Positions 15,499 to 49,433 of a stretch of DNA of 64,000 nt are shown here, piece after piece. Position 1 is the first letter of the stretch. Every line of letters starts with the position of its first letter. The notes beneath the pieces were generated by a model. That model was not told where the DNA came from, made no database searches, and saw only the letters and a list, made by a program, of their open reading frames with translations. The stretch comes from Escherichia coli (lineage in GTDB: Bacteria; Pseudomonadota; Gammaproteobacteria; Enterobacterales; Enterobacteriaceae), in assembly GCF_041886205.1 (NCBI RefSeq), contig NZ_CP169029.1. One strand, given 5' to 3'. A program made the translations under genes and the position numbers.

Positions 15499-15507
15499 TG
15501 TTTTTAA

Positions 15508-15540
15508 TTTATTCAATGAATTTATGTTTCATTGAATAAA
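15508..15540. repeat. perfect 13-bp AT-rich inverted repeat (tttattcaatgaa / ttcattgaataaa, 7-nt loop) 10 bp after the amiC stop
   Basis: Read directly from sequence; lies at the left edge of the accessory island. Confidence 0.5.
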
Positions 15541-15689
15541 TATTATTTACATAAATGTTGAACGATGGTTTTGTGACTGCTGTCGAATATTTGAATATCG
15601 GCTTAAAAAATAAGCCTGTCATCTCTTTTATTAAGCACAATTCCGTGTAAGGTATACGCATTAGTTAATTATCTTGTAACTGTTAAATC

Positions 15690-15744
15690 AGGCAAGGCAA
15701 TGTTTGAAGTAATTATTACTTCTGACATGCCTTGCCTTTTTTTT
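15690..15744 (+). terminator. leader stem-loop plus U8 tract upstream of the antiterminator gene; candidate conditional (RAT-associated) terminator
   Basis: Outer stem aggcaaggca (15690-15699) pairs with tgccttgcct (15728-15737); inner palindrome gaagtaat-t-attacttc (15706-15722); followed by 8 T (15737-15744); ends 12 nt before RBS gggag and ATG 15757. Confidence 0.6.
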
Positions 15745-15756
15745 GGGAGCCATGGA

Positions 15757-16581
15757 ATGATCATCGAAAAAGTCATGAACAATAATTGTGTACAGGCATC
15801 GGTGAACGGACAGGAGGTTATCATTTCTGGGCCTGGCGTTGGTTACAATAAAAAATATGGTATGTCGGTCCCTGAGCATCCTGCAAACCGGATTTTTTAT
15901 GTCAGAAATGAGCAAAAAAATAAACTCTACAAATTGATTGAGCATGTGGGTATTGAGTATATTTTTGTTGCCGAAAAGATAGTGCATTATGCGGAGAGTA
16001 ATCTCGAAAAAAAACTCAATCCATCGCTACTACTGATTCTTGCTGATCACATTTCGAATGCAATATCCCGAGTCGTCTCAGGCATACAAATTAATAATGT
16101 TTTCCTTGAGGAAATCAAAGCGTTGTACAAAGCAGAGTATGCAATAAGTCGTGATGCATTAACAATCATTAATGAGCAATTTAGCGTTCAACTACCGGAT
16201 GATGAGATTGGTTTTATAGCATTGCATATTTTAAATAATTATGAAAATTCAGTTGATTATGAATCAGTAAGGATCATTGAGCTGTCTCAAAAAATCACGG
16301 AGCTTATTGAAGTTGTTTATAACAGAAGGGTGGACAGAAGTTCATTTAACTACTCCAGATTTATGATGCACCTTAAATATTTTTCTAGTCGTGTGTTATG
16401 TAATGAAAAAATAAAACAGAAAAATATTGGTGATATCTATGAGCAGTTTCTTGAAAAAGATTTTCAGTTACAACGTGCCATTCATGAAATTGAAAGATAT
16501 CTGTACGCAACTTTTAAATATGATTTGATTCTGGAAGAGAAACTATATCTTTCTATTCGCATCAAAGTATTAATGGACTAA
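15757..16581 (+). CDS. BglG/LicT-family transcriptional antiterminator (CAT RNA-binding domain + PRD domains), ~274 aa
   Basis: N-terminus MIIEKVMNNNCVQASVNGQEVIISGPGVGYNKK is the typical CAT-domain start; ATG 15757 is preferred over the track start 15700 because of RBS gggag and because 15700 lies inside the leader hairpin. Confidence 0.85.
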   Translation: MIIEKVMNNNCVQASVNGQEVIISGPGVGYNKKYGMSVPEHPANRIFYVRNEQKNKLYKLIEHVGIEYIFVAEKIVHYAESNLEKKLNPSLLLILADHISNAISRVVSGIQINNVFLEEIKALYKAEYAISRDALTIINEQFSVQLPDDEIGFIALHILNNYENSVDYESVRIIELSQKITELIEVVYNRRVDRSSFNYSRFMMHLKYFSSRVLCNEKIKQKNIGDIYEQFLEKDFQLQRAIHEIERYLYATFKYDLILEEKLYLSIRIKVLMD

Positions 16582-16612
16582 TTATACATAACATTTTCAT
16601 GAGATAACCAGT

Positions 16613-18193
16613 ATGAAACAAAAGAAAGCCTGGAGTTTTTTTCAGAGCCTGGGGAAGGCATTTATGTATCCCATCGCTCTGTTAAGTGTATGTGGTATGA
16701 TGTTAGGGCTGGGAAGTGGTTTAGCCAGCGATGATATGGGAAAATTCATTCCAGTGTTGGCTATTCCGTTAATTAAAACCATACTTGATTTTATTGTTAG
16801 CCTTGGTTTGTTTGCCTTCGTTAATTTACCTGTATTGTTTGCGATAGCTATACCTTTGGGATTATTAAAAGAGAAAGATGATAAAGCCTATGGCGCTTTT
16901 TCTGGCTTAATTGGCTTTATGGCGATGCATCTTGGAACGAACTTTTATCTTAAACAGCACGACTTATTGGTAGCTGCTGACCAAATGTCGACACATGGGC
17001 AAACCATCATACTCGGGATCCAGTCCTACAATACCAGCGTGTTGGGTGGGATTGTGGCAGGGTTATTAGTCGCCAGCATGTATAAAAAGATCGTTAACTT
17101 ACGTATTCCTGAATCATTAGGGTTTTATAGTGGCCCACGCCTTGTGCCTATCATTACACTGATTGTGATGAGTGGATTTGGTCTGTTCATTCCTTTTATC
17201 TGGCCGCCATTTTTCAATCTTTTCATGCTCATTGGTCACTGGATTTCAACTTCCGGTCCTGTTGGTTATTTCTTCTATGCTGTTGCCGAACGCGTGACGA
17301 TACCTTTTGGCTTAAATCACTTGGTGACATCAGTTTTCCGCTTTACCCCAATCGGCGGATCGGCAGTGATTGGCGGTGAAGAGTATTACGGCACCCTGAA
17401 CATGTTTATGGCATACGTCAAAGAGAATGCGGTCATTCCGCTGGATTTGGCGGGGAAAATGGAGCAGGGCAAACTGATGATTCAGTATGGTCTGGCTGGA
17501 GCCGCGCTGGCGATGTATCGCACTGCTCATGCTCAAAACAGAAGGGCTATCAAAGCATTGCTGATTTCCGGTGTGCTCACGGTAATTATTGGCGGCGTCA
17601 GCGAGCCGATTGAATTTCTGTTCTTATTTGTCAGCCCGCTGTTGTTTGTCTTCCATGCCTTTATGAATGGATTGGCTAACATGGTTCTGCCATATATGGG
17701 CGTGAAGATGGGCTTTACTGGCGATCTGATTCAATTTATTAGCTTTGGTGTCTTACGTGGCACAAGAACGGGATGGCCATTAGCGGTATGTGTTGAAGTG
17801 GCTTATTTCTTCATTTATTACTTTGTGTTCCGTTGGACCATTCTCAAATTTAACCTGATGACTGTAGGCCGTGAAGAGTCCAGTCCTGTCACGCTGAACG
17901 CTCACGAAGAAACTGCAATAGCTAACATCCCAGTTCATGATAAATCAGAGTTGCAGGCAGCGGAGCAAATGGTTAAGGCTCTGGGTGGTAAAGAAAATAT
18001 TAAATCACTGGATAATTGTGTAACTCGTTTGCGTTTAACTATCGCGGATATGGGATTGATAGATGAGGCTGCAATAAAAAGGGCCGGAGGAATTGCGGTT
18101 GTGAAACTTGATCAAAATACCTTACAAGTCATTATCGGTACAAAAGTCATCGCCCTACGTCGGGATATGGATAATTACATGGGGATATGTTGA
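16613..18193 (+). CDS. PTS system glucose-family EIICB component (MalX/PtsG-like), 526 aa, no EIIA domain
   Basis: Multi-span membrane domain followed by C-terminal EIIB with the cysteine motif NCVTRLRLTIADMG; N-terminus MKQKKAWSFFQSLGKAFMYPIALL resembles PtsG/MalX. Confidence 0.9.
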   Translation: MKQKKAWSFFQSLGKAFMYPIALLSVCGMMLGLGSGLASDDMGKFIPVLAIPLIKTILDFIVSLGLFAFVNLPVLFAIAIPLGLLKEKDDKAYGAFSGLIGFMAMHLGTNFYLKQHDLLVAADQMSTHGQTIILGIQSYNTSVLGGIVAGLLVASMYKKIVNLRIPESLGFYSGPRLVPIITLIVMSGFGLFIPFIWPPFFNLFMLIGHWISTSGPVGYFFYAVAERVTIPFGLNHLVTSVFRFTPIGGSAVIGGEEYYGTLNMFMAYVKENAVIPLDLAGKMEQGKLMIQYGLAGAALAMYRTAHAQNRRAIKALLISGVLTVIIGGVSEPIEFLFLFVSPLLFVFHAFMNGLANMVLPYMGVKMGFTGDLIQFISFGVLRGTRTGWPLAVCVEVAYFFIYYFVFRWTILKFNLMTVGREESSPVTLNAHEETAIANIPVHDKSELQAAEQMVKALGGKENIKSLDNCVTRLRLTIADMGLIDEAAIKRAGGIAVVKLDQNTLQVIIGTKVIALRRDMDNYMGIC

Positions 18194-19401
18194 TGGATAT
18201 TTTTAATACCTCAATTTCTCGTAAAGGAACATATTGCACACAATGGGACTTTTGTGAAGACAGATTTGGTGTAAAAGATGTATTACCATTCTCTATTTCA
18301 GATATGGATCTTCCGATACCGGAAGCTATCATCAGAACATTAAAAAAACGTCTGGAACACCCGATTTTAGGGTACAGTCGTTGGCAGCATGATGACTATC
18401 TGAATTCGATAGTCAATTGGTATCATCAACAATATAAAACAGAGATTCAACCAGAATGGATCACCTATAGCCCAAGCGTGATGTATTCAATATCTAAGGC
18501 AATAGAAATATTGACATTGAATGGAGATAATATTCTCATTTTCACGCCTGTTTATAACGCATTTTTTGATGTGATTAAGCATAATGGTCGAAACATGCTA
18601 ACAACCTCTTTGATGAAAGAAAATGGGAGAGGCTACGTTATCAACTGGCAAGACTTTGAGCTTAAAATTAAAAGCGCGAAGATGGTGTTATTATGTAATC
18701 CTCATAACCCGACAGGAACGGTCTGGTCGGAAGACGATCTTCACAGAATCGCAGCATGCTGTGCAAGGCATAATATTTGGTTATGTTCAGATGAAATACA
18801 TAGTGATTTTGTTTTTAATCATAGTTTCACGTCAGCGCTAACAATAAAAGATGACAAAGTGGTGGTGTTTAATTCGATTTCGAAAACATTTAATGTTCCT
18901 GCGCTAACCGGATCATATATGATTTCAACTGACGATAATTTTAATCATAAGTTCAGAACGATATCGAGGTATCGCGATTTCGTAAACTCCCCATCAGTAC
19001 TGAATGTAATTGCGACCATTGTTGCCTATAATGAATGTGAAGAATGGTTAAAGTCGTTAAAGGTACATATTGCCTCTAACATTCAATTTACTTTGCAGTA
19101 TTTAAATGAAAATATTCCGGAATTGATCGTATGGCCAGCTGAGGGCTGCTATTTTTCGTGGGTTGATTGCTCGGCCCTTGGTTATCCCTTTGATAAATTT
19201 TACCGTCGATTAATTAACGAAGGGAGAGTAGGTATTATGGCGGGGCATGTTTATGGTACTGAAGGAGAGGGCTATCTGCGTCTTAATCTGGCCTGCAGTC
19301 GAGAAAAATTATATATGGGGCTTGCGCGCCTTGCGAGTGTAATTAAAAATATTAATCAGGAAAAAGAAAATGAACAATACGGATCTTATCCATCTTATTA
19401 A
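18187..19401 (+). CDS. PLP-dependent aminotransferase class I/II fold protein, MalY/PatB-like cystathionine beta-lyase (C-S lyase), 404 aa
   Basis: N-terminal RKGTYCTQWDF...FGVKDVLPFSISDMDLP and the SISKTFN lysine motif are typical of MalY/PatB; start overlaps the PTS stop. Confidence 0.85.
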   Translation: MLMDIFNTSISRKGTYCTQWDFCEDRFGVKDVLPFSISDMDLPIPEAIIRTLKKRLEHPILGYSRWQHDDYLNSIVNWYHQQYKTEIQPEWITYSPSVMYSISKAIEILTLNGDNILIFTPVYNAFFDVIKHNGRNMLTTSLMKENGRGYVINWQDFELKIKSAKMVLLCNPHNPTGTVWSEDDLHRIAACCARHNIWLCSDEIHSDFVFNHSFTSALTIKDDKVVVFNSISKTFNVPALTGSYMISTDDNFNHKFRTISRYRDFVNSPSVLNVIATIVAYNECEEWLKSLKVHIASNIQFTLQYLNENIPELIVWPAEGCYFSWVDCSALGYPFDKFYRRLINEGRVGIMAGHVYGTEGEGYLRLNLACSREKLYMGLARLASVIKNINQEKENEQYGSYPSY

Positions 19402-19966
19402 ACGTTTTATGCGTAACGAACATAAAGCAGTAGAAGAGGTTATTGATTCCCCCCTTTCGGAAGTCGCGAATTTAATTAAAATATTACAATCTTGCCAGGG
19501 AAAAGTTGTTTTTATTGGTGTTGGGAAATCTGGCATTATTGCCAGAAAACTTGCTGCAACATTTGCCAGCACCGGAACTCCCTCGTTTTTTGTTCACGGT
19601 ACGGAAGCGGTACACGGCGACCTTGGGATGGTGGCGAAAGACGATGTTGTTATTCTTATTTCAAACAGTGGTGAGACGGCGGAAATCCTGGCGACACTGC
19701 CTAGTTTGAAAAAAATGGGTAATTATTTGATCTCTTTTACCCGCAGTCATCACTCATCGCTTGCGATAAGTTGTGATTTATCTGTTGAAATCCCCGTCAA
19801 AAGTGAGGCGGATAATTTAGGTTTAGCACCGTCATGCTCGTCTACTGTTGTTCTGGTTGTTGGTGATGCGGTGGCGCTTGCACTCTCTGAATTGAAAAAA
19901 TTTACTCGTGCTGATTTCGGCTTATATCATCCAGGAGGTGCACTCGGCATTAAAGCAAATTCATAA
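19370..19966 (+). CDS. single SIS-domain sugar-phosphate isomerase, KpsF/GutQ-like but lacking CBS domains (198 aa)
   Basis: VVFIGVGKSGIIARKLAATFASTGTPSFFVHGTEAVHGDLGMV...ILISNSGET matches the arabinose-5-phosphate isomerase SIS domain; overlaps the preceding gene by about 30 nt. Confidence 0.8.
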   Translation: MNNTDLIHLIKRFMRNEHKAVEEVIDSPLSEVANLIKILQSCQGKVVFIGVGKSGIIARKLAATFASTGTPSFFVHGTEAVHGDLGMVAKDDVVILISNSGETAEILATLPSLKKMGNYLISFTRSHHSSLAISCDLSVEIPVKSEADNLGLAPSCSSTVVLVVGDAVALALSELKKFTRADFGLYHPGGALGIKANS

Positions 19967-20037
19967 TTTCAAAGTATAAATACAGTAACCGGTCACGCCA
20001 TCTTTTGGGGTGGCGTTCATTGAAGTGAGTGTCAGCT

Positions 20038-20985
20038 ATGAAAAATGTTCTGGTCACCGTCCCCAACTTTTCAGCACGCTGTGTTTCCGCCAGCAAGTTG
20101 CTAAGAGAGAATAATTTTAATCTTATTATTAAGAATAATGTGGAGCATCTGCTTAAATCAGAATCCACTGCATTACGAGAATCTATTTGCGCGGTCATCG
20201 CCGGAAAAGATTGTTATCAGGCGGACACGCTATCATTGCTGCCTGGTGTGAAAATAATATCAAGATTCGGGACGGGGATAGATAATATTGATCTTCGTGC
20301 AGCACAACAATCCGGTATTGTAGTCAATAATGCGGTTGGGATTAATTCAAATGCTGTCGCGGAATTTATCATTGGACTTATCTTCGCGAGCATGAGAAAT
20401 ATTCCAGGCAGCTATCATGCGATGCAAAATGGCTACTGGGGTGAGTCGCATGGCTATGAATTACAAGGCAAACGGATTGGCATGGTTGGCTACGGCAATA
20501 TAGGTAAAACCCTGGCAAAAAGGTTATCCGGTTTTGATGTTGAGCTTTTAGCTTATGACAAACAACCCGATTATCAGGTTGCTGACAAAGTTGGAGTTCA
20601 GTTTGTATCAATTGAAGATATCTTTATGCAGTCGCATGTCATCATTGTTCTTTTGCCTTTTTCTCCTGAGCTGGAGAACTTCATTAGTCATAAATATTTG
20701 TCGATGATGCGCAATGGTGCTCTAATCATCAATGCCGCAAGGGGAAAGTTGCTGGATGAGGGCGCTTTACTACAGGTGATTGAAGAACGAAATGTGTTTG
20801 CGGCGCTGGATGTGTTTAGCTCTGAACCGTTGGCGCAATTTAGCCCACTGCTACATGCCAAAAATATCATTACAACGCCGCATATTGCGGCCGCCACCGT
20901 TGAGTCATACCAGCAAACCGGTACACACGTTGCCCAGTCGATAATTGATTACTTCGCAGGAAGGGAGATAAAAAACGTGTTGTGA
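20038..20985 (+). CDS. D-isomer-specific 2-hydroxyacid dehydrogenase family NAD-binding protein (~315 aa)
   Basis: Rossmann motif GKRIGMVGYGNIGKTLAKRL and the family pattern ...LLPFSPELENFIS...; ATG 20038 preferred over the GTG at 20029 (uncertain). Confidence 0.8.
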   Translation: MKNVLVTVPNFSARCVSASKLLRENNFNLIIKNNVEHLLKSESTALRESICAVIAGKDCYQADTLSLLPGVKIISRFGTGIDNIDLRAAQQSGIVVNNAVGINSNAVAEFIIGLIFASMRNIPGSYHAMQNGYWGESHGYELQGKRIGMVGYGNIGKTLAKRLSGFDVELLAYDKQPDYQVADKVGVQFVSIEDIFMQSHVIIVLLPFSPELENFISHKYLSMMRNGALIINAARGKLLDEGALLQVIEERNVFAALDVFSSEPLAQFSPLLHAKNIITTPHIAAATVESYQQTGTHVAQSIIDYFAGREIKNVL

Positions 20986-21011
20986 GTTCAGCGAACGAAG
21001 TTTTTAAATAC

Positions 21012-21047
21012 AAAAAAACCGCAATTTGTGGAACACATTGCGGTTTA
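21012..21047 (-). terminator. rho-independent terminator of the tRNA-fMet operon (8-bp GC-containing stem followed by U7 on the minus strand)
   Basis: Stem accgcaat (21018-21025) pairs with attgcggt (21037-21044); the plus-strand A7 at 21012-21018 reads as U7 after the hairpin on the minus strand; 17 bp from the metV 3' end. Confidence 0.7.
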
Positions 21048-21063
21048 TCAGCATTCTAAGTAT

Positions 21064-21140
<77 letters not shown>

Positions 21141-21172
21141 TCACCGTACTGCTTTATTTCATCAAATTTGAT

Positions 21173-21249
<77 letters not shown>

Positions 21250-21282
21250 TCACCGTACTGCTTTACTTCATCAAATTTTAAT

Positions 21283-21359
<77 letters not shown>

Positions 21360-25247: not shown

Positions 25248-25438
25248 GGTACTCCTCGGCTTGATGCACCGATCGTGACGCAAAATTCACTTTGATACAA
25301 GGAGAGTGCTAACCATCAGAATTATCTGGATATCCTGGCGAAGCCGCGTAAGTAACATATGCTGAATAGTGTTAGGCGTTAATTTTAGCCTGTTAATCAA
25401 TACTATTAAGATTTATTAATCGCTTTAAGGAGAAGATG

Positions 25439-25666
25439 ATGAAAAAGACTGCCGCAATTATTTCTGCCTGTATGCTGACTTTTGCCCTGAGCGCCTGTTC
25501 CGGTTCGAACTATGTGATGCACACCAATGACGGACGTACCATCGTCTCTGACGGCAAACCACAGACTGATAACGATACCGGTATGATTTCGTATAAAGAC
25601 GCTAATGGCAACAAACAGCAGATCAACCGTACTGACGTGAAAGAGATGGTCGAACTGGATCAGTAA
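25439..25666 (+). CDS. ygdI: small lipoprotein YgdI (DUF903, 75 aa)
   Basis: [22 protein letters not shown] lipoprotein signal; RBS aaggag; located between csdA and gcvB. Confidence 0.85.
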
Positions 25667-25682
25667 TTCACGATCGCAAGGT

Positions 25683-25888
25683 AAAAAAAAGCACCGCAAT
25701 TAGGCGGTGCTACATTAATCACTATGGACAGACAGGGTAAATGTACAGGAAGTGAAAAAAGGTAGCTTTGCTACCATGGTCTGAATCGCAGACCAATTGC
25801 AAACACAACAACACAACATCACAACCGTAAGCCAAAAGTTCACCAGAACACGCATTCCGATAAAACTTTTCGTTCCGGCTCAGGAAGT
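25683..25888 (-). ncRNA. gcvB: GcvB small regulatory RNA (~206 nt), divergent from gcvA
   Basis: Minus-strand reading starts ACTTCCTGAGCCGGAACGAAAAGTTTTATCGGAATG, contains the GU-rich TGTGATGTTGTGTTGTGTTTGCAATTGGTCTG region, and ends with hairpin GCACCGCCTAATTGCGGTGC plus U8. Confidence 0.9.
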
Positions 25889-26016
25889 GCCGCCACTATA
25901 GGTATTTGCTGGTAGAAGCTCAACGGACAATTTATAATGGCTCAGATTAAAAAAACTAATAGGTTACATAGTGTGATCTAATTGTTAAATTCATTTAACA
26001 TCAAAGTTTAAAAGCC

Positions 26017-26934
26017 ATGTCTAAACGATTACCACCGCTAAATGCCTTACGAGTTTTTGATGCCGCAGCACGCCATTTAAGTTTCACTCGCGCAGCAGAA
26101 GAGCTTTTTGTGACCCAGGCCGCAGTAAGTCATCAAATCAAGTCTCTTGAGGATTTTCTGGGGCTAAAACTGTTCCGCCGCCGTAATCGTTCACTCCTGC
26201 TGACCGAGGAAGGTCAAAGCTATTTCCTCGATATCAAAGAGATATTTTCGCAATTAACCGAAGCGACGCGTAAACTCCAGGCCCGTAGCGCCAAGGGGGC
26301 GTTGACGGTCAGTTTACTCCCCAGTTTCGCCATTCATTGGTTGGTTCCGCGACTTTCCAGCTTTAATTCAGCTTATCCGGGAATTGACGTTCGAATCCAG
26401 GCGGTTGACCGTCAGGAAGATAAGCTGGCGGATGATGTTGATGTGGCGATATTTTATGGTCGGGGCAACTGGCCGGGGCTACGGGTGGAAAAACTGTACG
26501 CCGAATATTTATTGCCGGTGTGTTCGCCGCTACTGCTGACAGGCGAAAAACCCTTGAAGACCCCGGAAGATCTGGCTAAACATACGTTATTACATGATGC
26601 GTCACGCCGTGACTGGCAGACATATACCCGACAGTTGGGGTTAAATCATATCAACGTTCAGCAAGGGCCAATTTTTAGTCATAGCGCCATGGTGCTGCAA
26701 GCGGCTATTCACGGGCAGGGAGTGGCGCTGGCAAATAACGTGATGGCGCAATCTGAAATCGAGGCCGGACGTCTTGTTTGCCCGTTTAATGATGTTCTGG
26801 TCAGTAAAAACGCTTTTTATCTGGTTTGTCATGACAGCCAGGCAGAACTGGGTAAAATAGCCGCCTTTCGCCAATGGATCCTGGCGAAAGCCGCTGCTGA
26901 ACAAGAAAAATTCCGCTTTCGTTATGAACAATAA
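26017..26934 (+). CDS. gcvA: LysR-family transcriptional regulator of the glycine cleavage system (305 aa)
   Basis: 305 aa; N-terminal HTH LNALRVFDAAARHLSFTRAAEELFVTQAAVSHQIKSLE; divergent from gcvB. Confidence 0.95.
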   Translation: MSKRLPPLNALRVFDAAARHLSFTRAAEELFVTQAAVSHQIKSLEDFLGLKLFRRRNRSLLLTEEGQSYFLDIKEIFSQLTEATRKLQARSAKGALTVSLLPSFAIHWLVPRLSSFNSAYPGIDVRIQAVDRQEDKLADDVDVAIFYGRGNWPGLRVEKLYAEYLLPVCSPLLLTGEKPLKTPEDLAKHTLLHDASRRDWQTYTRQLGLNHINVQQGPIFSHSAMVLQAAIHGQGVALANNVMAQSEIEAGRLVCPFNDVLVSKNAFYLVCHDSQAELGKIAAFRQWILAKAAAEQEKFRFRYEQ

Positions 26935-33000: not shown

Positions 33001-33082
33001 CAGGATTCCTCATCTCGCTTTATTGGCGCTCTGCTAAGGCGGAGAAAGGAAACCACCGAAGCAGTAGTATTGGTCATTATTT

Positions 33083-33098
33083 GCTAACTCGAGTTAGC
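33083..33098. promoter_or_regulatory. perfect 16-bp palindrome GCTAACTCGAGTTAGC (copy 1), candidate LacI-family operator, about 83 bp upstream of the fucI start
   Basis: Read directly from sequence; the central CG and the 16-bp twofold symmetry are typical of LacI/GalR-family operators. Confidence 0.55.
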
Positions 33099-33321
33099 TT
33101 AGGTTTGTAGGCTTTTTATGCACAACTTTTTTGTTGTTGAAATGTGAGGGGCTTCACGAGAAGTGGTTAAAATACGATCTCTGTCAAATTATTATTTAGC
33201 GGGAGAAAAATAAATTTTACGTATAATCATATGGTTATTAGATTTTAATGGTTATGCATCACAGTTTTAACTCAAATGATTTGGCTAATTTGTATACCTA
33301 AAATAGCTTTAAAAGGCGATC

Positions 33322-33337
33322 GCTAACTCGAGTTAGC
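33322..33337. promoter_or_regulatory. perfect 16-bp palindrome GCTAACTCGAGTTAGC (copy 2), candidate operator about 133 bp upstream of the ABC transporter ATG
   Basis: Identical to copy 1, 239 bp away; a consensus TATAAT hexamer lies at 33222-33227 on the plus strand between the two copies. Confidence 0.55.
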
Positions 33338-33469
33338 AAAATGCGAAGAATAGATTGATGCGATGAATATTTATTCAAAGGTTATTCGTATCACAGTGGA
33401 GATGGCTTTAGTAGCGACGTTTATGCCGTACTTCACATTTTCAGTTTCTGATTATTGAGGAAAGCTGCA

Positions 33470-34969
33470 ATGTCCGAAACATTTTTGCAAATGAAGCATA
33501 TCACCAAACGCTTTCCTGGAGTGTTGGCGCTTAATGACGTGCAATTTTCCCTACGCCGGGGCGAGGTTCATGCATTATTAGGTGAAAATGGTGCAGGAAA
33601 ATCTACCTTAATGAAAATTTTGTCGGGGGTTTATCAACCTGATGAAGGCGAAATAATTTTTGAAGATAAACCAGTCTCATTTTCTGATCCGTTAAGTGCG
33701 CAAAACGTAGGTATTACTATTATTCACCAGGAATTTAATTTATTTCCCGAGCTTACAGTAGAAGAAAATATTTTTATCGGCAGGGAGTTTTGTAAAAAAA
33801 ATCGCTGGCGTCTGGATGAAAAACAGCAACGCCAGGCGACGATTGAAATTTTGCAAAAATTAAATTTGGCGATCAAACCAGATACTCTGGTTGCCGACCT
33901 TACGGTAGCTCAGCAGCAGATGGTAGAAATTGCCAAGGCCATTTCAGTTAACGCCAGGATTCTCATTATGGATGAACCTACTGCGGCGTTAACAGAAACT
34001 GAAATTGAAAGCTTATTTCGCGTCACCCGGTTATTGAAAGAGCAGGGGACCGGCATTGTTTATATCTCCCACCGTCTGGAAGAGTTGGCGCTAATTGCCG
34101 ACCGTGCGACTGTAATGCGTGATGGTCAGTACATCAGCACGGTGGATTATGAGTGCGTAAAAATCAGCGATCTGATTGCCATGATGGTTGGTCGCGATTT
34201 AGGGAATATCTATCCCCGCCGCGAGGCCTTGCAGCAGCGGATTCCGGTTCTGGAGGTAAACGGACTGACGCGCAAAGGCGTCCTGAACGATATTAATTTT
34301 ACGCTTTATCGTGGCGAGATCCTCGGCTTTGCCGGACTGATGGGCGCGGGGCGTACTGAACTTGCGCGTGCGATTTTTGGTGCGGATTCTATTGACAGCG
34401 GAACGCTAAAATTAAATGGTAAGGAAACCGTTATTAAAGATATTTCGGATGCTATTCAGCAGGGAATTAGTTACCTGACGGAAGACCGCAAAAAAGAAGG
34501 GCTGGCGCTGAATTTATCTGTTGAACGAAATATTATGTTAGGAAACTACCCTGAATATTCCGATCGTTTTGGGAATGTCGATTCGCGTCGTTGCCAACAA
34601 ACCAGTGAGGAACAGGTAAAAGCGTTAAGGATTAAAACGCCAAATCTTGAACAGGCGGCATTAAATCTAAGTGGAGGAAACCAGCAGAAAATTATAATTG
34701 CACGTTGGGTGTGTAAAGATACTGATATTTTAATCTTCGATGAACCCACTCGCGGCATTGATGTTGGCGCCAAACTGGAAATCTATGAGTTAATGAATCG
34801 CCTGGTGGCAAAAGGGAAATCAATCATCATGATCTCCTCTGAATTGCCTGAGGTGTTAGGAATGTGCGACCGTATTTTAGTGATGCGCAGTGGTCGAATT
34901 ACCGGCGAACTTAGCGCAAAAGAAGCGACACAAGAAAAAATTATGCAATACGCGACGTTAGAGGATTAA
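33470..34969 (+). CDS. sugar ABC transporter ATP-binding protein with two fused ABC domains (CUT2 family, RbsA/MglA-like), ~499 aa
   Basis: ATG 33470 preferred over TTG 33455 (RBS gaggaaag); Walker A GENGAGKST, signature LSGGNQQK in the second half, and total length indicate a duplicated ABC ATPase. Confidence 0.9.
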   Translation: MSETFLQMKHITKRFPGVLALNDVQFSLRRGEVHALLGENGAGKSTLMKILSGVYQPDEGEIIFEDKPVSFSDPLSAQNVGITIIHQEFNLFPELTVEENIFIGREFCKKNRWRLDEKQQRQATIEILQKLNLAIKPDTLVADLTVAQQQMVEIAKAISVNARILIMDEPTAALTETEIESLFRVTRLLKEQGTGIVYISHRLEELALIADRATVMRDGQYISTVDYECVKISDLIAMMVGRDLGNIYPRREALQQRIPVLEVNGLTRKGVLNDINFTLYRGEILGFAGLMGAGRTELARAIFGADSIDSGTLKLNGKETVIKDISDAIQQGISYLTEDRKKEGLALNLSVERNIMLGNYPEYSDRFGNVDSRRCQQTSEEQVKALRIKTPNLEQAALNLSGGNQQKIIIARWVCKDTDILIFDEPTRGIDVGAKLEIYELMNRLVAKGKSIIMISSELPEVLGMCDRILVMRSGRITGELSAKEATQEKIMQYATLED

Positions 34970-34972
34970 ATT

Positions 34973-35956
34973 ATGACTATCTCTGTAACCTCTCCAGACA
35001 GTAATAATAAGAAAATAAAGATAAATAAAGAACTTTTGATGCGTCTTGCGCCTCTTTTTAGCTTAATTATATTAGTGCTGTTTTTTAGTTTCAGCTCTCC
35101 CTTTTTCTTTAATACCGAAAATATCATGACGATTGCTCTGCAAACGTCGGTTATCGGCATTATGGCCATTGGGGTAACTTTCGTCATTATTACCGCGGGC
35201 ATCGATCTTTCATTGGGCTCCGTGGTGGCTTTTTCTGGTGTCGCCGTGGGGATTTGCGCCACACTGGGCCTGCCGCTGCCAGTGTGTATTATTGCCGGTG
35301 TTTTAGCCGGTGGAATGTGCGGCTATGTGAATGGTTTGTTGGTCACTAAAATGACCATTCCACCATTTATCGCTACCTTGGGCCTGATGATGTCCGTCAG
35401 AGGTATCAATATGGTGATGACCGACGGGCGCGCCATCTATTTTGCCGATTACCCGATGTTCAAAACGCTCGCTCAGGGACGCTTATTTGATGTGCTGCCT
35501 TATCCTGTTTTCTACCTTGTCATTGTAGCGCTTGTCGGCGCTTACATCCTGAAGAAAACCGTCATTGGTCGCTATGTCTATGCCGTAGGCAGTAATGAAG
35601 TTGCTGCTCATCTTTCTGGTATTAAAGTTCAGCGCGTGAAAATTTTCGTCTATGCCTTCTGTGGATTATTAACGGGGATTGCAGGTGTCATTCTGGCATC
35701 TCGTCTCAACTCCGGACAACCGACGGTAGGTGTGGGTTATGAACTGGAAGCTATTGCCGCGGTAGTGATTGGCGGAACCAGCTTAATGGGCGGTATTGGC
35801 ACTATTGGCGGCACAATCATTGGCGCTTTCATTATGAGTGTACTGAAAAATGGCCTCAATTTAATGGGCGTCTCCCAGTTCTGGCAAATGGTCGCGATGG
35901 GCGTCGTTGTGGTCGCTGCCGTTTACCTCGATACATTACGCAAAAAGATTCGTTGA
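34973..35956 (+). CDS. sugar ABC transporter permease (RbsC/AraH-like, 327 aa)
   Basis: Polytopic membrane protein; ATG 4 nt after the ATPase stop with RBS gagga. Confidence 0.88.
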   Translation: MTISVTSPDSNNKKIKINKELLMRLAPLFSLIILVLFFSFSSPFFFNTENIMTIALQTSVIGIMAIGVTFVIITAGIDLSLGSVVAFSGVAVGICATLGLPLPVCIIAGVLAGGMCGYVNGLLVTKMTIPPFIATLGLMMSVRGINMVMTDGRAIYFADYPMFKTLAQGRLFDVLPYPVFYLVIVALVGAYILKKTVIGRYVYAVGSNEVAAHLSGIKVQRVKIFVYAFCGLLTGIAGVILASRLNSGQPTVGVGYELEAIAAVVIGGTSLMGGIGTIGGTIIGAFIMSVLKNGLNLMGVSQFWQMVAMGVVVVAAVYLDTLRKKIR

Positions 35957-36029
35957 CTTAGGCTCCCTGTTTTATCGGGAAACAACTGCCCTGACGTTAA
36001 GGGTGATTCACTCAGAACGGAGTACAACA

Positions 36030-36980
36030 ATGAAAACCAGGCATTTTATCTATGCGTTATCTCTGCTGGCTTGCGTAAGTTCCAGCGCACTGGCGAAGGA
36101 TTTAAATCTTCCGGTTGTTAGTAAAGGTTTCCAACATGAATTCTGGCAAACCGTAAAAATGGGGACTGAAGCTGCGGCTAAAGAGTTGGGGGATAAAACC
36201 AGCTATGTTGGCCCGGCTGATGAAACGCAAATAGCCGAGCAAATTCAGTTAGTCGAAAATGCGATGGCGCAGAAACCGAATGGCTTGCTTCTGGCAGCCC
36301 TCGACGCGAATGCGCTCGCCCCACTGGTAGAAACGGCAAATTCACGCGGTATCAAAGTGGTGACCTTTGATTCAGGCATCAATTCAGACATTCCGGTGAG
36401 TTTTGTCGCCACCAATAACCGTAAAGCAGGTGCTCAGGCAGCTGATGCCTTAGCCTCGCAGGTAAATAATAAAGGGAAAGTTGGGATTATCGCGCACGTT
36501 GCAGGAACATCTTCCGCTATTGAACGCTCGGAAGGCTTCATGGAGCGTATGAAAGAAAAATATCCTGACATTAAAGTCTTACCCGTTCAGTACAGCGATG
36601 GTGACCCGCAAAAAGCGATGGATAAAACTATCGATATGATTCAGGCCAATCCCGATCTTGCTGGGATCTATGGCACCAATGAAGGTTCAACGCTCGGGGT
36701 GGCGAATGCCATTGATAGCCAGAATCTGAAAGGTAAGGTGAAGGTCATTGGTTTTGATAGTACGGAAGCGATTATTAACTTCCTGAAGAACGGCGTCATT
36801 CAGGGCTTTGTTGTTCAGGATGCATACCAGATTGGCTATCAAGGGATCAAAACGTTGAACGCGGCCCTTTCGGGGCAAGCCGTTGAAAAAGAGATCGATA
36901 TTCCCGTGAAATTTGTTAATGCCGAGAATATTAACACGCCAGAAATCGACAAACTCCTGCACCCATTCGGTAAGAAATAA
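36030..36980 (+). CDS. periplasmic sugar-binding protein (RbsB-like, type I PBP fold), ~316 aa
   Basis: Internal ATG at 36030 gives MKTRHFIYALSLLACVSSSALA, a signal peptide; the track ORF upstream extension overlaps the permease and lacks signal-peptide character. Confidence 0.88.
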   Translation: MKTRHFIYALSLLACVSSSALAKDLNLPVVSKGFQHEFWQTVKMGTEAAAKELGDKTSYVGPADETQIAEQIQLVENAMAQKPNGLLLAALDANALAPLVETANSRGIKVVTFDSGINSDIPVSFVATNNRKAGAQAADALASQVNNKGKVGIIAHVAGTSSAIERSEGFMERMKEKYPDIKVLPVQYSDGDPQKAMDKTIDMIQANPDLAGIYGTNEGSTLGVANAIDSQNLKGKVKVIGFDSTEAIINFLKNGVIQGFVVQDAYQIGYQGIKTLNAALSGQAVEKEIDIPVKFVNAENINTPEIDKLLHPFGKK

Positions 36981-37032
36981 AAAATTGGGGATGAATTTTC
37001 ATCCCCGTTATCTCCAGCGTCAGGGAGGCTTT

Positions 37033-38613
37033 ATGCACAACGGTTATTTTCTCGGTGTCGATGTCGGATCGGCCAGTGTCAGGGCAGGCGTTTACAGTGC
37101 CAGTGGCCACAGGCTGGCATTCGCTACTGCGCCCGTCTCCCAGTTTCGCCCTGGCGGCGAGCGTGTCGAACAGTCTTCGGCAGAGATCTGGCAACAAGTT
37201 TGTAAAACGGTGAAAGAGGCGACAGCTTTGGCAGGCATCCCCATTTCCGCAATTCGCTCACTGGGTTTTGACGCTACCTGCTCGCTGGTTGTTCTTGATG
37301 AACAAGGCCAGGGTTTAGCGGTTTCGTCCGGTGGATCTGCGAATCACGACATTATTATGTGGATGGATCATCGTGCAACTGTCGAGACGGCGCAGATTAA
37401 CGCAATGAAGGATCCCGCATTGCGCTACGTTGGCGGCGAAGTGAGCGTCGAGATGGAGTTACCAAAGTTACGTTGGTTGAAGACGCATCTACCGCAAACC
37501 TGGCAGGCCGCTCATCGCTTTTTCGATCTGGCGGATTTTCTGGTCTGGAAAGCAACAGGGCGAGACGTCGCGGGATTATGCACGCTAACGTGTAAATGGA
37601 ATTATCTAGCTCATGAGCAACGCTTTAGCCATAGCTTACTGGAATCGATAGACCTGACCGATATGCTTGAAAGAATTCCTGCCAACATTCTTCCGCCTGG
37701 CGCTGCCGTGGGAACGTTAACCGCCACAGCTGCTGAAGAGTTAGGATTAACGACTAATGTTATCGTGGCCAGTGGCTTGATTGATGCCCATGCCGGTGGC
37801 GTGGCGCTGGCTGGCGCTCACCCATCAGGAACGCTGGCATTGATAAGCGGAACGTCGAACTGCCATATGCTGTGTAGTGAAAAAGAGATATTCACCCCTG
37901 GCGTCTGGGGGCCATACTGGTCGGCCATGTTGCCAAATTACTGGCTAACCGAAGGCGGGCAAAGCGCCGCAGGGGCGCTGGTGGAGTGGACGCTTCAGGA
38001 GTCAGGGGCAAGCGCAAATCTTTTTCACAAGGCGCAGCAACGCGGATGTCATCCGATTCAACTGATTAATGAATGGGTAGCAGCCCTTGAAGCTAACGAG
38101 TCAGAACCCACACGAAATTTACATGTGCTTGCCGATCATCACGGCAACCGTTCGCCACGAGCGCGGCCCGATGCCAGAGGCAGTGTTTATGGCTTAACAC
38201 TGGAGCGTGGTGAAAATCAGCTCGCGCGACTTTATCTTGCGACTTTACAGGCAATAGCCTTTGGCACCAGACATATTATTGAAACTCTGCGGGAAAATGG
38301 GCATACCATTACCCGATTAACATTATGTGGTGGTGCAACGCACAACCCTTTATGGCTACGCGAATATGCAGACGTGACAGGTTGCGATATCCACCTGATG
38401 CAAGAAGAAGATGCCGTTACGTTGGGCGCAGCAATTAGCGGCGCTGTTGCCAGCGGAGCATGGGGGGATTTTACATCTGCGTGTAAAGCAATGGTTGAAG
38501 CCGGAGAGATTATTCAGGTAAATCCACAACGCCGTGAATTTTTAGAGCGTAAATACCGGGTTTACCTGACGCTTTGGGAGCAACAACAGGCGGTTAACCA
38601 ACTGATGCAATAA
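37033..38613 (+). CDS. FGGY-family carbohydrate kinase, pentulose-kinase-like subgroup (~526 aa)
   Basis: Internal ATG at 37033 (RBS cagggagg) gives MHNGYFLGVDVGSASVRAGVY, the FGGY N-terminal motif; GTSNCHM motif mid-protein; the track ORF start at 36913 overlaps the binding-protein gene. Confidence 0.87.
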   Translation: MHNGYFLGVDVGSASVRAGVYSASGHRLAFATAPVSQFRPGGERVEQSSAEIWQQVCKTVKEATALAGIPISAIRSLGFDATCSLVVLDEQGQGLAVSSGGSANHDIIMWMDHRATVETAQINAMKDPALRYVGGEVSVEMELPKLRWLKTHLPQTWQAAHRFFDLADFLVWKATGRDVAGLCTLTCKWNYLAHEQRFSHSLLESIDLTDMLERIPANILPPGAAVGTLTATAAEELGLTTNVIVASGLIDAHAGGVALAGAHPSGTLALISGTSNCHMLCSEKEIFTPGVWGPYWSAMLPNYWLTEGGQSAAGALVEWTLQESGASANLFHKAQQRGCHPIQLINEWVAALEANESEPTRNLHVLADHHGNRSPRARPDARGSVYGLTLERGENQLARLYLATLQAIAFGTRHIIETLRENGHTITRLTLCGGATHNPLWLREYADVTGCDIHLMQEEDAVTLGAAISGAVASGAWGDFTSACKAMVEAGEIIQVNPQRREFLERKYRVYLTLWEQQQAVNQLMQ

Positions 38614-38677
38614 GACAAAAGTTGAAAATACTTTTATGATTGTGATTTGACGTCTGGATGTTAACTGGGAAATACCT

Positions 38678-39676
38678 ATGGCTAAAACAGTAGAGCAGAT
38701 AGCCAGCGACCTGAATTTATCGGTTACGACCGTGCGACTGGTGCTAAATGGAAAAGCGGAACAATATCGAATCAGCGTCAAAACCCAAACGCGTATCAAT
38801 GAATATGTTGAACGCTATGGTTATATCATTAATCATTCCGCTCGCAGCCTTAAGCTTAACAAAACTGATACATTAGGGTTGATTGTTCCCAACATATCCA
38901 ACGTCTTTTTTGCTACGCTGGCAGAAAAACTCGAACAACGCTGTCGACGTTCCGGATATCAACTTACAATCAGTTGCACTTATGATGATGTTGACTATGA
39001 AAATAAATTGACGAAAGCATTTATCGCACGAAATGTAGATGGTCTTTTTATTGTTCCTTCGACGCTGGAAAATCAGCAGCATCATTTACGCAAAATTCGT
39101 AAGCCCATGGTTTTACTCGATCGTGATTTTAAATATACCGATAACGCATTGGTAGAGAGTAATAATATTTCTGGCGGAGAAAAGCTGACGCAAAATATTC
39201 TTGAGGCCGGGCAGACTCCAGTATGGTTTTTGCTGGGAGATGCCGGTTTGCCGAGTATCAGCGATCGTCTGACAGGTTATTTGAATGCGTTGGCAAAAAA
39301 AGGGATTACCCATCGCGATTGGGTGCGGGAAGGTCCGGTAAATACTCCGGAAGGCGGCTATGTCATTATGGAAAAACTCATTGAAGAGCAGGGATGTCCG
39401 CAGGCATTTATCGCCTCGTCTTTGCCTGTGCTTGAAGGCGCTGTCCGCGCGATTCGCGACCGTCTTGGCGCTGTACCGCCAGAAATCAATATTGGCACTT
39501 TCGATGAACATCCTATGCTGGGATTTCTCGCCAACAATGTCTGGTCAATGCAGCAGGATGAAAATGCCTGGGCAGAAAAAGCGTTCGAAATGATGTTAAG
39601 CGCGATCGAAGAAAGACCAGTCAAAAAAACAGTTAAAGTAGAAATGAAATTAATTAAGCGCATAAGAAAAAAATAA
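38678..39676 (+). CDS. LacI/GalR-family transcriptional regulator (332 aa)
   Basis: N-terminal HTH region followed by a periplasmic-binding-protein-like sugar-binding fold (LGLIVPNISNVFFATLAEKLE). Confidence 0.88.
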   Translation: MAKTVEQIASDLNLSVTTVRLVLNGKAEQYRISVKTQTRINEYVERYGYIINHSARSLKLNKTDTLGLIVPNISNVFFATLAEKLEQRCRRSGYQLTISCTYDDVDYENKLTKAFIARNVDGLFIVPSTLENQQHHLRKIRKPMVLLDRDFKYTDNALVESNNISGGEKLTQNILEAGQTPVWFLLGDAGLPSISDRLTGYLNALAKKGITHRDWVREGPVNTPEGGYVIMEKLIEEQGCPQAFIASSLPVLEGAVRAIRDRLGAVPPEINIGTFDEHPMLGFLANNVWSMQQDENAWAEKAFEMMLSAIEERPVKKTVKVEMKLIKRIRKK

Positions 39677-39808
39677 TAATCGCCAAAAGATATCAGGCTA
39701 CTGAACAATGATATTCAGTGGCCTCCCCTTACTAAAAATAACCCCGTCTTCATTTGCGGTGCTGTTTTACGCAACAAGGCGAGCTGAAACTGTATCTGGA
39801 GAATAGAA

Positions 39809-40456
39809 ATGGAAAGAACACGTTTATCCCGTGAAATAATTGAAACCTGTCTGGAAATGACGCGCCTTGGGTTAAATCAGGGGACAGCGGGGAATGTCAG
39901 CACACGTTTTGAAAACGGCATGTTGATTACTCCCAGCGGTATTCCTTATGAAAGAATGACGGAGAATATGATTGTCTATGTTGATGGCAACGGCAAATAC
40001 GAAGAAGGTAAGATTCCTTCCAGCGAGTGGCGTTTCCATATGGCAGCCTATCAAAGCAGACCGGATGCCAACGCGGTTGTTCACAATCATGCCGTTCATT
40101 GCACGGCAGTTTCCATTCTTAACCGACCGATCCCCGCTATTCACTACATGATTGCGGCGGCGGGCGGTAATTCTATTCCTTGCGCGCCTTATGCGACCTT
40201 TGGAACACGTGAACTTTCTGAACATGTTGCGCTGGCTCTCAAAAATCGTAAGGCAACTTTGTTACAACATCATGGGCTTATCGCTTGTGAGGTGAATCTG
40301 GAAAAAGCGTTATGGCTGGCGCATGAAGTTGAAGTGCTGGCGCAACTTTACCTGACGACCCTGGCGATTACGGACCCGGTGCCAGTGCTGAGCGATGAAG
40401 AGATTGCCGTAGTGCTGGAGAAATTCAAAACCTATGGGTTACGGATTGAAGAGTAA
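39809..40456 (+). CDS. fucA: L-fuculose-phosphate aldolase (class II aldolase, 215 aa); N-terminal ~70 residues appear divergent from the K-12 allele
   Basis: 215 aa; residues from about 75 onward (SSEWRFHMAAYQSRPDANAVVHNHAVHCTAVSIL...KFKTYGLRIEE) match E. coli FucA as recalled; the N-terminal part carries many substitutions. Confidence 0.9.
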   Translation: MERTRLSREIIETCLEMTRLGLNQGTAGNVSTRFENGMLITPSGIPYERMTENMIVYVDGNGKYEEGKIPSSEWRFHMAAYQSRPDANAVVHNHAVHCTAVSILNRPIPAIHYMIAAAGGNSIPCAPYATFGTRELSEHVALALKNRKATLLQHHGLIACEVNLEKALWLAHEVEVLAQLYLTTLAITDPVPVLSDEEIAVVLEKFKTYGLRIEE

Positions 40457-49031: not shown

Positions 49032-49388
49032 GAGTCAGACAACGAAGTGAACATCAGGATGATGACACTTCTGCAGGACACACCAGGATGGTGTTTCAGG
49101 GAAAGGCTTCTGGATGAAGCGAAGAGGATGACGCAGGACGCGTTAAAGGACACCTCCAGGATGGAGAATGAGAACCGGTCAGGATGATTCGGTGGGTCAG
49201 GAAGGCCAGGGACACTTCAGGATGAAGTATCACATCGGGGTGGTGTGAGCAGGAAGCAATAGTTCAGGATGAACGATTGGCCGCAAGGCCAGAGGAAAAG
49301 TTGTCAAGGATGAGCAGGGAGCAACAAAAGTAGCTGGAATGCTGCGAAACGAACCGGGAGCACTGTGAATACAGTGCTCCCTTTTTTT
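49032..49388 (+). ncRNA. csrB: CsrB small RNA (CsrA-sequestering sRNA with repeated GGA motifs)
   Basis: Starts GAGTCAGACAACGAAGTGAACATCAGGATGATGACAC; carries about 16-18 GGA motifs, many as CAGGATG; ends with hairpin GGGAGCACTGTGAATACAGTGCTCCC plus U7 (49356-49388). Confidence 0.92.
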
Positions 49389-49433
49389 ATTCCTGCTATC
49401 CTTCGCGGCAGTTTTTCTTATTGAGGTTGCTTT

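Follow-up and report, generated by a model that had tools for sequence, protein, structure and literature searches.

The 64,000-nucleotide stretch of Escherichia coli DNA analyzed here (hereafter the window) carries, on its minus strand, the gene of the small RNA (sRNA) GcvB between the convergent gene ygdI and the divergent gene gcvA (Table 1). GcvB is an Hfq-dependent sRNA that represses many mRNAs of amino-acid and peptide transport and metabolism. A preliminary description, made from the letters of the sequence, had assigned a 206-nt minus-strand sequence to GcvB, including its GU-rich seed and terminator, and had proposed a search with the Rfam GcvB model. Scanning the whole 64-kb window with Rfam 15 gave five matches above the gathering thresholds, among them RF00022 (GcvB) at 25888..25683 on the minus strand, exactly the interval that had been assigned. 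This match reaches 199.0 bits (gathering score 42; E-value 1.1e-46) and extends untruncated over all 204 positions of the model (1-204). Furthermore, the sequence agrees at every position with the 206-nt gcvB annotated in E. coli K-12 (b4443; 100% identity), and the gcvB strand folds with a minimum free energy of -62.1 kcal/mol (z = -3.63 versus dinucleotide shuffles). The assignment to GcvB was thereby borne out.

The described placement of the gene holds as well. The start of gcvA at 26017 on the plus strand lies 128 nt from the gcvB +1, and the K-12 annotation shows the same divergent orientation. The ygdI stop codon (TAA, 25664-25666) and the last U of gcvB (25683) are 17 positions apart, counted from the last stop-codon base, which leaves 16 nt between them. 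In K-12 MG1655, where gcvB occupies 2942696..2942901 (+), ygdI (b2809) 2942918..2943145 (-) and gcvA 2941650..2942567 (-), the geometry of the 3 genes is the same as in the window. Compared with the K-12 GcvB locus (b4443, RF00022), the window shows the same 206-nt sequence, the same R1, R2 and R3 regions, internal hairpin and terminator, and the same placement relative to gcvA and ygdI; there is no difference within the gene, and the only SNPs from the ygdI start to the gcvA ATG are located at 25670, in the spacer, and at 26012, shortly before the gcvA start codon. A query of 651 bp spanning ygdI-gcvB-gcvA (window 25400-26050) found a match in 5425 of 5426 complete E. coli genomes, at an identity of at least 99% in 5383 of them. 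The segment is absent from the remaining genome, and one of the matches is located on a plasmid.

Taken together, the full-length Rfam match, the identity to b4443, the divergent gcvA and a correctly placed sigma-70-like promoter identify the gene. Judged by its sequence, the feature is a canonical gcvB gene that possesses all sequence-testable defining features of RF00022. The family is further characterized by an RNA of approximately 200 nt whose expression depends on GcvA and glycine and which binds Hfq, with the U-tailed terminator as part of the Hfq-binding module. The absence of an approximately 200-nt minus-strand transcript, which would speak against this identity, is already contradicted by data from K-12: for the identical K-12 sequence, expression has been documented by Term-seq (PMC7815308) and Northern blots (PMC9765468), and its regulation, including the control of gcvB by GcvA, has been described (PMC9299463).

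Table 1. Features of the ygdI-gcvB-gcvA locus in window coordinates (a point in the strand column marks features without assigned strand).
Feature	Position	Strand	Basis and remarks
ygdI, 75-aa DUF903 lipoprotein, convergent with gcvB	25439..25666	+	ORF, K-12/PGAP annotation, 100% identical to K-12
Spacer between ygdI stop and gcvB 3' end, 16 nt	25667..25682	.	One SNP versus K-12, at 25670
gcvB sRNA gene, 206 nt	25683..25888	-	+1 = 25888, last U = 25683; Rfam, K-12 identity, fold
GcvB U8 tail (A8 on the ygdI strand)	25683..25690	-	First U can pair as last stem base
gcvB terminator AGCACCGC-CUAAUU-GCGGUGCU plus U-tail, nt 178-206	25683..25711	-	Terminator scan, location
Shared 22-bp palindrome, 8-bp stem and 6-nt loop	25690..25711	.	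gcvB terminator hairpin (-); ygdI mRNA 3' stem-loop (+)
Mapped ygdI mRNA 3' end, 25714 or 25715	25712..25715	+	K-12 Term-seq; 3-4 nt past the stem, within the region transcribed as gcvB from the other strand
R3 seed, CUGUCUGUC, GcvB nt 154-162	25727..25735	-	G156, G160 and C162 of PMC9299463 match the window sequence
R2, conserved single-stranded region, CACUUCCUGUACAUUU, nt 135-150	25739..25754	-	Sequence location
SL3, internal hairpin and U6 run, GGUAGC-AAA-GCUACC-UUUUUU, nt 114-134	25755..25775	-	Terminator scan; terminator-like site inside gcvB
C-rich, G-poor tract (R1 antisense), candidate Rho loading site	25787..25861	+	Composition; putative function
R1, GU-rich seed, GGUUGUGAUGUUGUGUUGUUGUGUUUGCAAU, GcvB nt 63-93	25796..25826	-	Sequence location
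gcvB-gcvA divergent control region, 128 bp	25889..26016	.	Sequence and annotation
gcvB promoter-like site TTGAGC-17 nt-TATAGT	25895..25923	-	Consensus scan, 9/12 matches; putative function, from position
gcvA, LysR-type regulator, divergent from gcvB, co-directional with ygdI	26017..26934	+	ORF and annotation

The anatomy of the RNA corresponds to that of a complete GcvB. The -10 element of the promoter-like site ends 6 nt before the gcvB +1 (25888), and in the consensus scans this promoter and two terminator-like hairpins were found on the minus strand only. In an alignment of 21 GcvB homologues from Enterobacterales and Pasteurellaceae, the core of R1 (UUGUGUUUGC), whose role as a seed is known from Miyakoshi 2022 (PMC9299463), is invariant, as are CACUUCCUGUA and, within R2, CACTTCCTGTA. 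RNAalifold retained SL2, SL3 and the terminator across the 21 sequences, with 9 pairs showing compensatory changes, and such changes are found among the pairs of SL3. Furthermore, 20 diverse loci of Enterobacterales and Pasteurellaceae that had been fetched by a GcvB pattern all match RF00022, with scores of 99-192 bits. A 46-aa open reading frame inside gcvB (25715..25855, minus strand) was considered as a gene and rejected, as only Enterobacteriaceae preserve it; in Yersinia, Serratia and Hafnia, which do conserve the RNA, no more than 7-22 aa remain.

The terminator of gcvB is part of a palindrome that begins 23 nt past the ygdI stop codon and can fold in the RNA of either strand, with similar predicted free energies (gcvB strand, -13.8 kcal/mol; ygdI strand, -14.4 kcal/mol). 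The flanks of the stem differ between the directions. On the gcvB strand, the stem is followed by seven further U, the U8 tail including the pairable first U. On the ygdI strand, it is followed by ACAUUAAU, with 3 U in 8 positions and ACA as the first three nucleotides, and the longer flank ACAUUAAUCACUAUGG is the complement of GcvB nt 162-177. Correspondingly, a terminator d-score, calculated with a formula of the d'Aubenton-Carafa 1990 type, amounts to +32 in the gcvB direction and -46 in the ygdI direction, and the consensus scan detected no terminator-like site on the plus strand. The ygdI direction is devoid of a U-tract because its flank is GcvB sequence: ACAUUAAU is fixed since it corresponds to GcvB nt 170-177, and the ygdI-side flank, being functional sRNA sequence, cannot evolve a U-tract. 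A U-rich tract on both strands, as expected for a bidirectional intrinsic terminator, is therefore not present, and the element is not a canonical two-way terminator. In the gcvB direction, a two-terminator Northern assay on a plasmid without ygdI showed approximately 5% read-through, i.e., approximately 95% termination (Morita 2022, PMC9765468). The shared hairpin can best be regarded as a canonical terminator in one direction only, and its reverse complement additionally provides the 3' stem-loop of the ygdI mRNA.

The preliminary description had suggested that the terminator hairpin may serve both genes and had named RNA-seq read ends as a way to examine this. Published Term-seq data from K-12 (Adams 2021, PMC7815308, Supplementary file 1) indeed place both RNA ends at the hairpin. 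The primary ygdI 3' end was mapped to K-12 2942870 in LB at OD 0.4 (36,630 reads), 2942869 in LB at OD 2.0 (1,164,820 reads) and 2942870 in M63 (441,780 reads), and the GcvB 3' end to 2942894 in LB at OD 0.4 (134,815 reads). We transferred these coordinates to the window as 25683 + (2942901 - K-12 coordinate), which relies on the sequence identity to K-12; the printed 61-nt Term-seq strings comprise 50 nt upstream, the 3' end and 10 nt downstream, and their register was checked against the stop codon and the gcvB start. With this conversion, the ygdI end lies 3-4 nt past the palindrome in 3 of 3 conditions, while the dominant GcvB end in LB at OD 0.4 corresponds to 25690 on the minus strand, so that both convergent transcripts end at the same hairpin (25690 for GcvB and 25714/25715 for ygdI). 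This supports that one hairpin defines the 3' ends of both transcripts, and the suggestion stands in the sense that to serve a gene means to define the 3' end of its RNA. The ygdI end was 12- to 32-fold stronger in stationary phase or minimal medium than in LB at OD 0.4, as judged from the read counts in PMC7815308.

As a consequence of these positions, the two RNAs overlap tail to tail across the whole hairpin, by 25 nt when the Term-seq ends are used and by up to 33 nt when the annotated gcvB end is used. The exact overlap is uncertain because the dominant GcvB end, nt 199 and hence the first U of the U8 tail, falls 7 nt before the annotated end of the 206-nt RNA. A GcvB molecule ending at nt 199 would retain almost no free U-tail; trimming, or an artifact of mapping within the homopolymer, could account for this end. 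In LB at OD 2.0 and in M63, the GcvB ends given in PMC7815308 are only internal (K-12 2942768 and 2942763); these correspond to 25816 and 25821 on the minus strand, i.e., nt 73 and 68, within the R1 seed. They indicate a stable 5' fragment that is cut inside the seed, with cleavage or sponge-induced decay as possible causes.

The GcvB pattern scan across genomes yielded 120 loci, or 122 with two E. coli reference loci, the window being counted in addition. Of these 122 loci and the window taken together, 117 possess a recognisable GcvB terminator. The pattern matches without a terminator (L044, L049, L051, L080 and L119) were regarded as chance matches and dropped; they lay in Paenibacillus, Borreliella, Ignavibacteriales, Flavobacteriales and Faecalicatena. 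The locus of Pasteurella atlantica (L042) failed the strict hairpin rule, with the T-run present.

A YgdI homologue is encoded convergently downstream of gcvB in 73 loci including the window, and in 61 of these the distance from the hairpin stem to the ygdI stop is 15-50 nt. This spacing was observed in every sampled genus of the Enterobacteriaceae with ygdI downstream (including Salmonella, Citrobacter, Enterobacter, Kluyvera, Pluralibacter, Cedecea, Buttiauxella, Mangrovibacter and Shimwellia) as well as in several Serratia and in Chimaeribacter. Longer distances occur in Hafnia (69-70 nt), Yersinia and Rahnella (88-169 nt) and one Serratia (287 nt). In two Hafnia loci (L059 and L090), ygdI has its own hairpin and T-run (e.g., AACGCTGGCCTTGGCTGGCGTT TTTGCTAA) directly before the gcvB terminator, so that back-to-back terminators take the place of the shared one. 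No ygdI was found after gcvB in the sampled Morganellaceae, Pasteurellaceae, Edwardsiella and Plesiomonas, nor in a few Enterobacteriaceae (e.g., Kluyvera cryocrescens, L095). The gcvB terminator hairpin is nevertheless retained in lineages without a downstream ygdI; its stem is conserved across the Enterobacterales, while other G+C stems are found in its place in Pasteurellaceae. The retention without ygdI shows that the hairpin is maintained for gcvB, with ygdI using it where the two genes abut. The conservation of the hairpin thus owes nothing demonstrable to ygdI.

We propose the following explanation for the locus. gcvB is transcribed leftward from a putative sigma-70 promoter in the divergent region between gcvA and gcvB, and GcvB pairs with its targets through the GU-rich R1 as well as through R2 and R3. 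Its transcription ends at a strong intrinsic terminator, consisting of an 8-bp G+C stem and the U8 tail. In the ygdI direction, the stem-loop most likely defines the 3' end and blocks exonucleases, perhaps with weak termination in addition. Polymerases that pass the hairpin from ygdI are probably halted downstream, perhaps by Rho acting on the C-rich antisense of R1. We consider it very likely that this explanation is correct as a whole, i.e., that gcvB has a canonical terminator whose reverse complement acts as the ygdI 3'-end stem-loop. For the more specific proposition that transcription from ygdI terminates downstream and the RNA is then trimmed 3'-to-5' as far as the stem-loop, we see roughly even chances.

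This last proposition draws on a known class of transcripts. In E. coli mRNAs terminated by Rho, the 3' ends left after trimming are found at stable stem-loops that lack a U-tract (Dar and Sorek 2018, PMC6061677), and the ygdI end likewise lies just after a stable, U-less stem-loop with more C than G downstream. Specifically, the ratio of C to G on the ygdI strand is 17:5 and 17:6 in 50-nt windows located 75-150 nt downstream, and the tract at 25787..25861 is C-rich and G-poor on this strand because it is the antisense of the GU-rich R1. Against the proposition, the data of PMC7815308 obtained with bicyclomycin (BCM; Supplementary file 2) contain no Rho region on the ygdI strand near K-12 2942500-2942870, although these data stem from LB at OD 0.5, the condition with the weakest ygdI signal. 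Furthermore, Term-seq cannot separate termination from processing. The ygdI mRNA thus shares with the transcripts of Dar and Sorek 2018 the stem-loop, the 3' end near the stem and the downstream excess of C over G, and it is a candidate for dependence on Rho and exonucleases. It differs from these transcripts in that its stem-loop simultaneously serves, on the other strand, as the canonical terminator for an sRNA.

The main alternative origin of the ygdI end would be intrinsic termination at the palindrome itself, which would then be a true bidirectional terminator at which the polymerase coming from ygdI stops despite the poor U-tract, with subsequent trimming by a few nt. We regard this as doubtful. 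While the stem-loop is strong on the ygdI strand (-14.4 kcal/mol) and the sharp ygdI end at 25714/25715 is reproducible in three conditions, the nucleotides that follow the stem argue against it: ACA comes directly after the stem, only 3 of the 8 tail positions are U, the d-score is -46, and the scan of the plus strand gave no terminator-like site. This composition is not a peculiarity of the window, as the ygdI-side tail contains at most 3 U in 8 across all Enterobacteriaceae sampled. Weak intrinsic termination is possible at sites with few U according to Dar and Sorek (PMC6061677), and a direct stop at the hairpin would be compatible with PMC7815308 reporting no Rho region downstream on the ygdI strand.

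A further possibility is that the two polymerases are required for each other, as in the collision-type bidirectional terminators of Ju et al. 2019, where converging polymerases, here those of gcvB and ygdI, would pause at the hairpin and dislodge each other. According to the SEnd-seq work and its single-molecule follow-up, convergent pairs whose 3' ends overlap around a hairpin are the class in question, and ygdI and gcvB form such a pair. However, gcvB terminates efficiently on a plasmid without ygdI, with the 5% read-through given above (PMC9765468), and the ygdI end is strongest in LB at OD 2.0 and in M63, for which the tables contain no full-length GcvB end. A maximum of the ygdI signal under such conditions speaks against termination by collision, which we consider highly improbable. 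It also appears improbable to us that the proximity is incidental, with the hairpin serving gcvB only and the ygdI end representing a decay intermediate without functional consequence. Conservation of the hairpin is just as high at loci that lack ygdI or have it further away, and in the one phenotype assay that was found, for acid resistance, deletion of ygdI had no effect (PMC2676305), both of which would fit with an incidental proximity. On the other hand, the hairpin site is the dominant, primary ygdI end in 3 of 3 conditions with very high read counts, the 16-nt spacer contains no other hairpin and has no room for one, and the longer spacer of Hafnia goes together with a separate terminator for ygdI.

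Compared with the bidirectional terminators of Ju et al. 2019, exemplified by ynaJ-uspE, the locus is alike in consisting of a convergent pair whose 3' ends overlap around one hairpin. In contrast to the ynaJ-uspE element, which is weak on its own in either direction, the gcvB direction corresponds to a strong classical terminator. Furthermore, as judged from the Term-seq conditions, the ygdI end does not appear to need concurrent transcription of gcvB, in which it would differ from that class. The locus can be characterized as an asymmetric shared 3' element, which on one strand forms a canonical sRNA terminator and on the other a U-less, end-defining mRNA stem-loop. The arrangement as such is already known: the position of gcvB against ygdI is annotated in every E. 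coli and Salmonella, and a Salmonella listing gives the arrangement with gcvA and ygdI as '<- -> <-'. With the arrangement annotated and both 3' ends contained in public Term-seq tables, nothing in it is new, and for a textbook sRNA such as GcvB, both ends of which are public, the finding matters little.

Read-through at the shared hairpin would produce antisense RNA in both directions. In PMC7815308, a Rho-termination region is reported with a top coordinate at K-12 2943134 (+), a Rho score of 10.3 and a p-value of 2e-71. This coordinate corresponds to approximately 25450 on the minus strand of the window. It is situated in antisense orientation to the ygdI 5' end, 233 nt past the gcvB terminator, and indicates that residual gcvB read-through is stopped by Rho. 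The location of this region at the ygdI 5' end implies that gcvB read-through would be antisense to the whole of ygdI. In the opposite direction, one strand carries in series ygdI, the shared hairpin, the antisense of gcvB, and gcvA, and the ygdI mRNA reaches very high levels in stationary phase and in minimal medium. With an abundant mRNA upstream in such a series, leakage through the hairpin could yield anti-GcvB RNA and interfere with the gcvB promoter. If regulation of ygdI read-through into antisense gcvB and gcvA were demonstrated, the control of a global amino-acid regulator would gain a cis-antisense layer. That the 25- to 33-nt overlap together with mutual read-through could reciprocally couple the expression of GcvB and YgdI, beyond what their independent promoters do, is improbable in our estimation. 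A trans-acting role of the ygdI 3' UTR or an interaction between GcvB and ygdI was also considered and found no support. Searching Hfq CLASH data for either gave only one ygdI-aldB hybrid with a count of 1, and an sRNA predictor based on RIL-seq assigned a probability of 0.003 to gcvB.ygdI.IGR, both of which are at noise level.

Beyond this locus, the window contains further RNA genes. Full-length CsrB is encoded at 49032-49391 (+) in its usual place beside syd/yqcC (RF00018, 383 bits), and the initiator tRNA-Met genes metZ, metW and metV are arranged in tandem at 21067-21359 (-), with 61.4 bits each in the tRNA model. Furthermore, the window differs from K-12 in two larger segments. The fucose locus at 33013-39829 harbors 6.8 kb in place of an approximately 1.9-kb K-12 segment with fucP and the fucA-fucP control region, while the flanking fucI and fucA are kept; among the 5426 genomes, 383 have this variant. 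The replacing DNA carries genes for a sugar ABC transporter with its ATPase, permease and binding protein, for a kinase of the FGGY family and for a regulator of the LacI type. Since the segment with fucP is replaced, the strain appears to be devoid of a fucose permease gene at the fuc site. The second segment, 5.56 kb at 15500-21060, is absent from K-12 and is located between amiC and metV, which are separated by approximately 70 bp in K-12. It encodes a PRD-domain antiterminator, a PTS EIIC(B) transporter, a MalY/PatB-type aminotransferase, a KpsF/GutQ-type SIS isomerase and a 2-hydroxyacid (phosphoglycerate-type) dehydrogenase, and it was found in 1689 of 5426 complete E. coli genomes, with an identity of at least 99% in 261 and of 90-95% in 1422 of them.
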